Source: Cyanobacteriota bacterium (lineage in GTDB: Bacteria > Cyanobacteriota > Cyanobacteriia > Cyanobacteriales > Microcoleaceae). Taken from it: DNA of 64,000 bases. The text below continues a report on this DNA, generated by a model with database tools. The stretch is taken from NCBI GenBank assembly GCA_034189005.1, contig JAXHVR010000009.1:11413-75412 (forward strand). The letters are read 5' to 3'. The DNA is not shown here.

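Follow-up and report, generated by a model that had tools for sequence, protein, structure and literature searches.

Past 47.4 kb the genes of the window are housekeeping (malic enzyme and rimP-nusA-ylxR-infB); upstream of them, an ORF map and four Pfam scans recovered every element that the preliminary description had listed. Pfam matches confirmed wzm, wzt with its C-terminal binding module (Wzt_C, 4e-25, residues 315-454), six SAM-methyltransferase and two sulfotransferase domains, RmlC and RmlD, and they brought the number of Leloir glycosyltransferase domains, claimed to be at least nine, to at least 10. Also present were the 684-aa RTX protein, the secretion set (a parvulin prolyl isomerase or PPIase, a cNMP-C39-ABC transporter and HlyD), two polytopic membrane proteins of 590 and 592 aa, and the GtrB-like GT2, confirmed as ArnC/GtrB-like. 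The description had not mentioned the orphan Imm30 gene, the gene of the 302-aa protein, whose true start is Met48 of a longer ORF (14 orthologs), or a block of unrelated genes amid the glycan genes. The block is absent in Okeania and in L053 (one of the loci of relatives used for neighbourhood comparison), where a 2077-aa-type gene runs directly into the next methyltransferase. Thus, its presence in the window reflects a recent, lineage-specific insertion. Its adenylate cyclase and MscS-cNMP genes were attractive candidate regulators of the cNMP-binding exporter but, because of this restricted distribution, we did not count them in the system. A horizontally acquired island was also rejected: neither tRNA nor Rfam matches were found in the window, nor an integrase match among the window ORFs scanned with Pfam. 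Coding regions for the coiled coil and the Gly-rich protein account in position for the GC peaks at 6-10 kb and 22-24 kb.

Positions of the genes and gene blocks discussed (nucleotides of the window; strand where reported)
Feature	Position	Strand	Remarks
wzm	847-1695		Pfam
wzt	1887-3302		Pfam; Wzt_C binding module
376-aa methyltransferase (MT376)	3503-4633
2077-aa protein	4662-10895	+	sulfotransferase, coiled coil, GT2/GT2/GT4
BrnA-like ORF, adenylate cyclase, MscS-cNMP channel, PBP-like protein	10868-16293		inserted block; Pfam
403-aa methyltransferase (MT403)	16576-17787
PF12000 GT4	20433-21695	+
RTX (oscillin-like) protein	22264-24318		684 aa
Conserved gene of unknown family (302-aa protein)	24720-25628	-
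MT-GT fusion	25637-27331	-
1559-aa GT41 giant	28101-32780	+
PPIase, cNMP-C39-ABC transporter, HlyD	from 33009 onward
590-aa membrane protein (mem590)	39746-41518
Orphan Imm30 gene	41550-42008
592-aa membrane protein (mem592)	44531-46309
ArnC/GtrB-like GT2	46394-47356

The 47 kb do not stand as the single island that had been proposed. Neighbourhood comparisons seeded on the RTX, 1559-aa, 590-aa and 2077-aa proteins resolved them into a composite of three modules. Module A comprises, in order, a UCP020893-like gene, wzm, wzt, a methyltransferase gene, the 2077-aa gene, methyltransferases plus a sulfotransferase, and the PF12000 GT4; module B is the oscillin gene. In module C, one strand carries the 302-aa gene with the MT-GT fusion, and the other the GT4-GT2-GT41 giant, the PPIase, ABC and HlyD genes, the 590-aa gene and a GT2. 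Synteny among Oscillatoriales relatives held in part. The three modules adjoin in the window clade (L002, L004, L010 and L011), Okeania, Dapis and L053, but lie apart in Microcoleus, Tychonema and USR001. Module A stands alone beside ruvB in Microcoleus vaginatus, the oscillin gene of Microcoleus and USR001 sits beside cobA/fraC without sugar or secretion genes, and module C is kept whole in Microcoleus, Tychonema, Kamptonema and Phorm 6 (L013-L023, L040). Modules B and C adjoin in Kamptonema PCC 6407 and O. nigro-viridis, and A and C abut in a different order in L047. In Trichodesmium, the window's tail (590-aa gene, methyltransferase, rmlC, rmlD and 592-aa gene) is retained, and in Microcoleus-type loci the opposite flank of module C carries the ArnC-like GT2 along with rmlD and the 592-aa gene. 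Local profile comparisons detected an ~80-aa beta domain common to the 2077-aa protein, which has it twice, and the N-terminus of MT403 (probability 85-88%), and a related domain at the C-termini of MT376 and the 592-aa membrane protein (91%). One beta domain common to all modules was rejected, because these two pairs alone were supported (85-91%) and the 590-aa protein and Wzt_C were not.

The product of module B had been called oscillin-like, and its full-length homology to oscillin orthologs bears this out. It matches HemolysinCabind (5e-42, Pfam), has 13 strict and 16 loose GGxGxD-type motifs, and consists of 19% Gly, 10% Asp and 10% Asn. Homologs of 611-690 aa (40-50% identity, 79-100% query coverage, E 1e-89 to 1e-151) occur in Okeania, Dapis, Microcoleus, Tychonema, Kamptonema (646 aa) and Phormidium nigroviride, and in USR001, where the protein was deposited as 'Oscillin'. 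A hydrophobic N-terminal segment is absent. The last ~90 residues are free of repeats and contain the conserved motif YE..G.L.YD..G....A.l.g.P.l..sDI.II-COOH, with hydrophobic residues after an acidic one at the C-termini of the family (..SDIIII, ..SDILII, ..TDIQLI). Secreted proteases and lipases have a type I secretion (T1SS) signal of this acidic-then-hydrophobic type. The protein thus bears the marks of a T1SS cargo in having RTX repeats and a predicted, uncleaved C-terminal signal but no Sec signal. The stop codon is followed by a 13-bp hairpin with a T run. The sequence has 15 N-x-S/T sequons, but nine are GND[ST]; since GND[ST]/GNDT/S is intrinsic to RTX repeats generally, the count is uninformative and was discarded as evidence of glycosylation. 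The oscillin of P. uncinatum is described as a 646-residue RTX glycoprotein of surface fibrils (PMC3034196, PMC12475490). Like the window protein, it is an Oscillatoriales protein of ~650 aa made nearly entirely of Gly/Asp-rich Ca2+-binding repeats and lacks a signal peptide (Hoiczyk and Baumeister, 1997; PMC3034196, PMC12475490). Identity to oscillin homologs is only 40-46%. Oscillin is a fibril-forming, gliding-linked glycoprotein, a character that the window protein may share.

The transporter likely to export this cargo, described as a C39-like ABC exporter, belongs to the HlyB subfamily of T1SS proteins. It scored above the cutoff of the NCBI HlyB-subfamily model (TIGR01846, 730.3 versus 725.55 bits) and its best solved relative in the PDB is E. 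coli HlyB (2e-170, residues 309-1000). It also matches Peptidase_C39 (9e-10, Pfam). In this domain, Gly303 aligns with Tyr9 of HlyB and with the catalytic Cys of LagD/ComA-type peptidases (the LagD/ComA alignment was made by hand), and the catalytic position is G or A in 15 orthologs. The replacement of the Cys indicates a domain that binds cargo rather than a leader peptidase. For this reason, and because the match to HlyB is much stronger than those to PCAT1 and ComA, an active C39 exporter of the bacteriocin type was rejected. The N-terminal cNMP-binding domain is kept even in the most distant relative found. The HlyD protein (HlyD_3, 2e-8, Pfam) has one N-terminal TM segment and owes its length of 725 aa to a long repetitive coiled coil, whose ~300-aa insertion explains why the match to TIGR01843 (3e-35) falls under the cutoff. 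No TolC-like outer membrane gene was found among window ORFs of at least 100 aa, which is weak evidence against a T1SS, this component often being encoded elsewhere. The PPIase is a parvulin without a signal peptide, and its gene is always directly 5' of the ABC gene across the loci compared. We take Sll1180, the HlyB-like protein of Synechocystis, to have the same cNMP-C39-ABC architecture. Sll1180 is reported to export the surface protein Sll1951 together with Slr1270 and the HlyD-like Sll1181 (Agarwal et al., 2018; Trautner and Vermaas, 2013; cited in PMC11171426).

Co-conservation of the RTX gene with the glycan genes, on which the proposed link between them depended, was largely borne out, and beyond the Oscillatoriales too. 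A metagenome scan was seeded on the 302-aa protein and mapped with the window proteins, and selected loci were scanned with Pfam. The RTX gene, 302-aa gene, PF12000 GT4, PPIase, ABC, HlyD and rml genes (the deep core) recur in at least five gene orders, across cyanobacterial orders and GC-rich taxa. In Nostocales (Komarekiella atlantica, Nostoc sp. MG11 and Nostoc sp. B(2019)), the order is RTX, a PF12000 GT4::parvulin fusion of 680 aa, a pentapeptide/RTX protein, RTX, the 302-aa gene, RmlA, RmlC and RmlD; in seven loci, the fusion reads through in frame with no stop codon. On a single strand, L102 (GC 59%) encodes an RTX protein of 1435 aa, an NHL/Ig protein, the 302-aa protein, a PF12000 GT4, PPIase, cNMP-ABC and HlyD. 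In L072 (GC 54%), rmlD-rmlC-HlyD-ABC-PPIase face the 302-aa and RTX genes. Among the 48 loci of at least 8 kb, 28 have a PPIase or ABC gene, 19 an RTX-like ORF (mostly within 1 kb of the 302-aa gene) and 16 a PF12000 GT4; many of these loci are close relatives, so that the independent evidence amounts to some five or six arrangements and one gene fusion rather than the raw counts. In the window, the PF12000 GT4 lies directly upstream of the oscillin gene, and its identity across genera, 83-95%, far exceeds that of the neighbouring genes. The 302-aa family comprises 654 clusters at 50% identity. No member has a Pfam match, PDB profile searches with 7 and 20 sequences were empty, and a single-sequence AlphaFold model (pLDDT 33) was too low to read; a GT-A fold with an EDD motif is our guess. 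In other organisms, members are fused to methyltransferases, PF12000 GT4s, a Glyco_trans_1_2 domain or TPR repeats.

On balance, we lean towards a division of labour in which the GT4 would glycosylate the unfolded oscillin chain in the cytoplasm, the glycosylated cargo would leave through the T1SS, and module A would build a separate capped polysaccharide. A GT4 working on unfolded polypeptide is the simplest explanation for its fusion to a prolyl isomerase, and an unfolded-chain substrate likewise explains most simply why the PPIase keeps its place before a transporter that binds unfolded RTX cargo through its C39-like domain. The GT41-like domain of the 1559-aa protein, noted in the preliminary description, is real (PF13844, 5e-15, above cutoff) and probably suited to protein glycosylation, as had been suggested, since its solved relatives are all protein glycosyltransferases: SPINDLY (7e-21, residues 1249-1544), the OGT of T. 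terrenum (1e-20, residues 1182-1516), and XcOGT and human OGT (1e-7). The domain follows a conserved ~230-aa region (roughly 950-1180), with no TPR array detected by Pfam, and occurs only in T1SS-linked orthologs of the protein. Solubility is predicted for the 302-aa protein and the PPIase as well as for every Leloir transferase, methyltransferase and sulfotransferase. Together with the fusion and the position of the PPIase, the GT41 relatives, the T1SS linkage of this domain and the soluble enzymes favour glycosylation in the cytoplasm. Against this reading, module A of Microcoleus ends with the PF12000 GT4, wzm/wzt-linked Nostocales proteins share ~60% identity with the GT4 domain of the 1559-aa protein, and no glycosylated T1SS cargo is known to have been followed through the channel.

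The polysaccharide of module A is central to two of the readings that compete with cytoplasmic glycosylation. The 2077-aa protein consists of a sulfotransferase (residues 15-211) with its PAPS-binding motifs intact (RSGTS 21-25, KDPR 112-115), a coiled coil (~286-720), two tandem beta domains and a GT2/GT2/GT4 array (1060-2070), as matched by Pfam and PDB profiles. Among the matches listed, the sulfotransferase and GT ends are kept in 120 of 120 homologs and the coil varies from 181 to 512 aa. In the window the coil spans ~430 aa with periodic repeats of 28 aa. One group of close relatives, including Trichodesmium-named sequences, has eleven distinct coil lengths (343-434 aa), each divisible by 7, and a difference of 7 also separates Microcoleus variants. 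Such heptad-quantised lengths are the pattern expected from a ruler under diversifying selection, and the natural variants of Trichodesmium-like populations could be used to test the function of the putative ruler in the field. A 2019 survey by Mann and colleagues in Glycobiology reportedly covers terminator chemistries; leaving that survey aside, we found no earlier description of a sulfotransferase terminator in the literature searched. Sulfation would likely be a new chain-terminating chemistry in the coiled-coil ruler paradigm. In WbbB-type terminator-rulers, the terminating enzyme is at the far end of the coil and the binding module of Wzt recognises only terminated chains (PMC11231755). 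The window shares Wzm, Wzt with a C-terminal binding module and the terminator-coil-GT architecture with WbbB of Klebsiella O12 and WbdD/WbdA of E. coli O9a (PMC11231755, PMC3482155). The likeness to WbbB, compared by architecture, lies in one protein chain that has its terminator at the far end of a long coil and the GT modules at the other. However, the terminator here is a PAPS-type sulfotransferase rather than the Kdo transferase or kinase/methyltransferase of WbbB/WbdD, and two extra beta domains follow the coil. Scans of the window's ORFs (100 aa or longer) found no WecA, WaaL or initiating phosphoglycosyltransferase; these may be encoded elsewhere.

Module A bears all the marks of a tightly length-controlled O-polysaccharide pathway that depends on an ABC transporter (PMC11231755), and the sugar genes could make a polysaccharide only, either a defined-length LPS O-antigen or a sheath polymer, to which oscillin and other RTX proteins exported unglycosylated, or glycosylated by other enzymes, would bind non-covalently via Ca2+. 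The Caulobacter protein RsaA, exported by a T1SS and anchored on the O-antigen in a Ca2+-dependent manner (PMC11026435), is the precedent. Because a protein layer must match its anchor, this arrangement would also explain why the genes are kept as neighbours. Consistent with it, wzm/wzt loci of Nostocales encode close relatives of both the GT4 and the GT2 domain of the 1559-aa protein, and the ArnC-like GT2 and GT-C-like proteins fit the periplasmic decoration of a polysaccharide (PMC11127046). We nonetheless consider it unlikely. A GT4::PPIase fusion is hard to explain for an enzyme acting on a lipid-linked sugar, the solved GT41 enzymes act on proteins, and the compact L102 operon has the RTX, 302-aa, GT4, PPIase, ABC and HlyD genes without a polysaccharide exporter. 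Furthermore, oscillin is reported as a glycoprotein (PMC3034196).

The model of the preliminary description, an S-layer-glycan-type pathway, would have the module A glycan built on a lipid carrier, exported by Wzm/Wzt and transferred en bloc onto oscillin by a membrane oligosaccharyltransferase during or after export, a role that the 590-aa protein would have to fill. Its gene is directly after HlyD in all Oscillatoriales loci. The protein has ~10-12 TM segments, with D41, directly after TM1, invariant in 16 sequences, as are H66, H69, R70 and K75. Neither this protein nor the 592-aa one has a Pfam or NCBIfam match, even at E up to 5, and the 590-aa protein has no sequence match in the PDB. 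Its AlphaFold model (mean pLDDT 64.9, pTM 0.58) may resemble GT-C enzymes, including the oligosaccharyltransferases PglB and AglB, the top Foldseek matches being ArnT, AftB, AglB, PglB and Pmt4 with weak scores (E 3e-3 to 0.3, TM 0.2-0.37). The ArnC-like GT2 has two C-terminal TM helices and matches the ArnC (5e-53) and PgfS (1e-43) models, both under their equivalog cutoffs. By model and analogy, the pair suggests that, on the outer face of the inner membrane, a polyprenyl-phosphate donor gives up its sugar in the manner of the three-component GtrA/GtrB/GtrC-type modification of periplasmic glycans (PMC11127046). The window has the GtrB/ArnC-like GT of such systems but lacks the small GtrA-like flippase, as no small multi-TM ORF was found in the intergenic spacers of the island. 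The adjoining modules of the window clade, Okeania, Dapis and L053, the abutting A and C of L047, the related ~80-aa beta domains of module A enzymes and the 592-aa membrane protein, and the fusions of the 302-aa family to PF12000 GT4s would all suit en bloc transfer. We find it decidedly improbable, however. The window has no candidate for a Wzy_C-type (WsaB/PglL) O-OTase, which led us to reject such an enzyme, and no initiating transferase among the ORFs scanned; the GT-C assignment is weak; classical T1SS cargo bypasses the periplasm; module A is alone beside ruvB in Microcoleus; and neither Nostocales nor L102 has wzm/wzt within 9 kb of the deep core.

The cytoplasmic and membrane routes could also coexist. 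PF12000 GT4, parvulin and the 302-aa enzyme would then be an unrecognised glycosylation machine for T1SS cargo, in cyanobacteria and beyond, joined in Oscillatoriales by a second route in which the GT-C-like protein after HlyD moves the polysaccharide exported by Wzm/Wzt, with its ruler-measured length and sulfate cap, onto oscillin en bloc while export is under way. This is a long shot that, if true, would imply a periplasm-accessible step in the T1SS. HlyB-type exporters are probably few in cyanobacteria, as would suit a T1SS serving as a general RTX exporter, with oscillin and the sugar genes merely neighbours inherited together in one clade. Although cyanobacteria carry many RTX proteins (PMC2853384, PMC3034196), the modules are unlinked in Microcoleus, Tychonema and USR001, and unrelated genes are inserted within the region, such an assemblage is very improbable, because a core set recurring in at least five gene orders, across cyanobacterial orders and GC-rich taxa and including a gene fusion, is more than one inherited ancestral arrangement can explain.

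Several parts of the system are known: oscillin, the HlyB/HlyD-type T1SS, as reported for Sll1951 (Agarwal et al., 2018, cited in PMC11171426), and the WbbB/WbdD-type pathway. The pairing of RTX protein and T1SS with a PF12000 GT4, parvulin and the 302-aa family, the GT4::PPIase fusion, the GT41 giant beside a T1SS and the sulfotransferase-tipped ruler appear undescribed, and literature searches on oscillin or SwmA with glycosyltransferase and on PF12000 returned no prior account of such a pairing. Oscillin has been known since 1997 as a surface glycoprotein of gliding cyanobacteria, and SwmA and Sll1951 are likewise reported as glycosylated RTX proteins (PMC7522525; PMC11171426). We found no enzyme named in the literature searched as glycosylating any of the three. 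The locus and its relatives provide a short testable list of candidates (PF12000 GT4, 302-aa family, parvulin, GT41 giant and the cNMP-gated HlyB/HlyD pair), and Arthrospira (PMC11632167) and Nostoc are now genetically tractable, making the predictions testable. If true, cytoplasmic glycosylation of the cargo would be the first case of type I secretion with a glycosylation system coupled to it and would raise the question of how a sugar-bearing chain passes the T1SS channel.

Cytoplasmic glycosylation is coupled to dedicated secretion in other bacteria, as with the HMW1C/NGT enzymes of family GT41 and two-partner secretion, or GtfA/GtfB and the accessory Sec system. As in the window, soluble glycosyltransferases, with a GT41-family domain among them, are encoded beside the surface-protein substrate and its exporter. 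The window differs in that the exporter is a T1SS, for which we found no described example of linked cytoplasmic glycosylation in the literature, and in having as its most conserved enzyme a PF12000 GT4 that is paired with a parvulin or fused to one. In Caulobacter crescentus, the O-antigen genes presumably adjoin rsaADE. RsaA and its RsaDEF exporter resemble the window in coupling a T1SS to a Ca2+-dependent surface-layer protein, predicted here, and the placement of RsaA depends on the O-antigen (PMC11026435, PMC8828063), a possible reason for keeping a polysaccharide pathway and an RTX/T1SS pair together. However, RsaA is not reported to be glycosylated, and PPIase, GT41 and PF12000 GT4 are not known in that system. 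The Synechocystis Sll1951 system (PMC11171426) also combines a cyanobacterial RTX-type surface protein, there a glycoprotein, with an HlyB/HlyD-type T1SS; the window cargo gene adjoins the exporter, sugar enzymes and PPIase, whereas no glycosylation genes are known to be assigned to Sll1951. The SwmA island of marine Synechococcus (PMC7522525) likewise holds a cyanobacterial RTX-type surface protein, the motility-associated glycoprotein SwmA, and a glycosyltransferase, although SwmA differs from oscillin in family and in the kind of motility. Finally, the slg loci of Geobacillus and Paenibacillus (WsaE MT-GT fusion, WsaB O-OTase; PMC2943079) have wzm/wzt, rml genes, MT-GT fusions and the logic of a methyl-capped glycan in common with the window. 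They differ in having a Wzy_C-type O-OTase, an initiating transferase (WsaP) and rmlA/rmlB, neither of the latter two being found in the window beside rmlC and rmlD, and their hosts export the S-layer protein via Sec, whereas the window comes from a Gram-negative host with a T1SS cargo.

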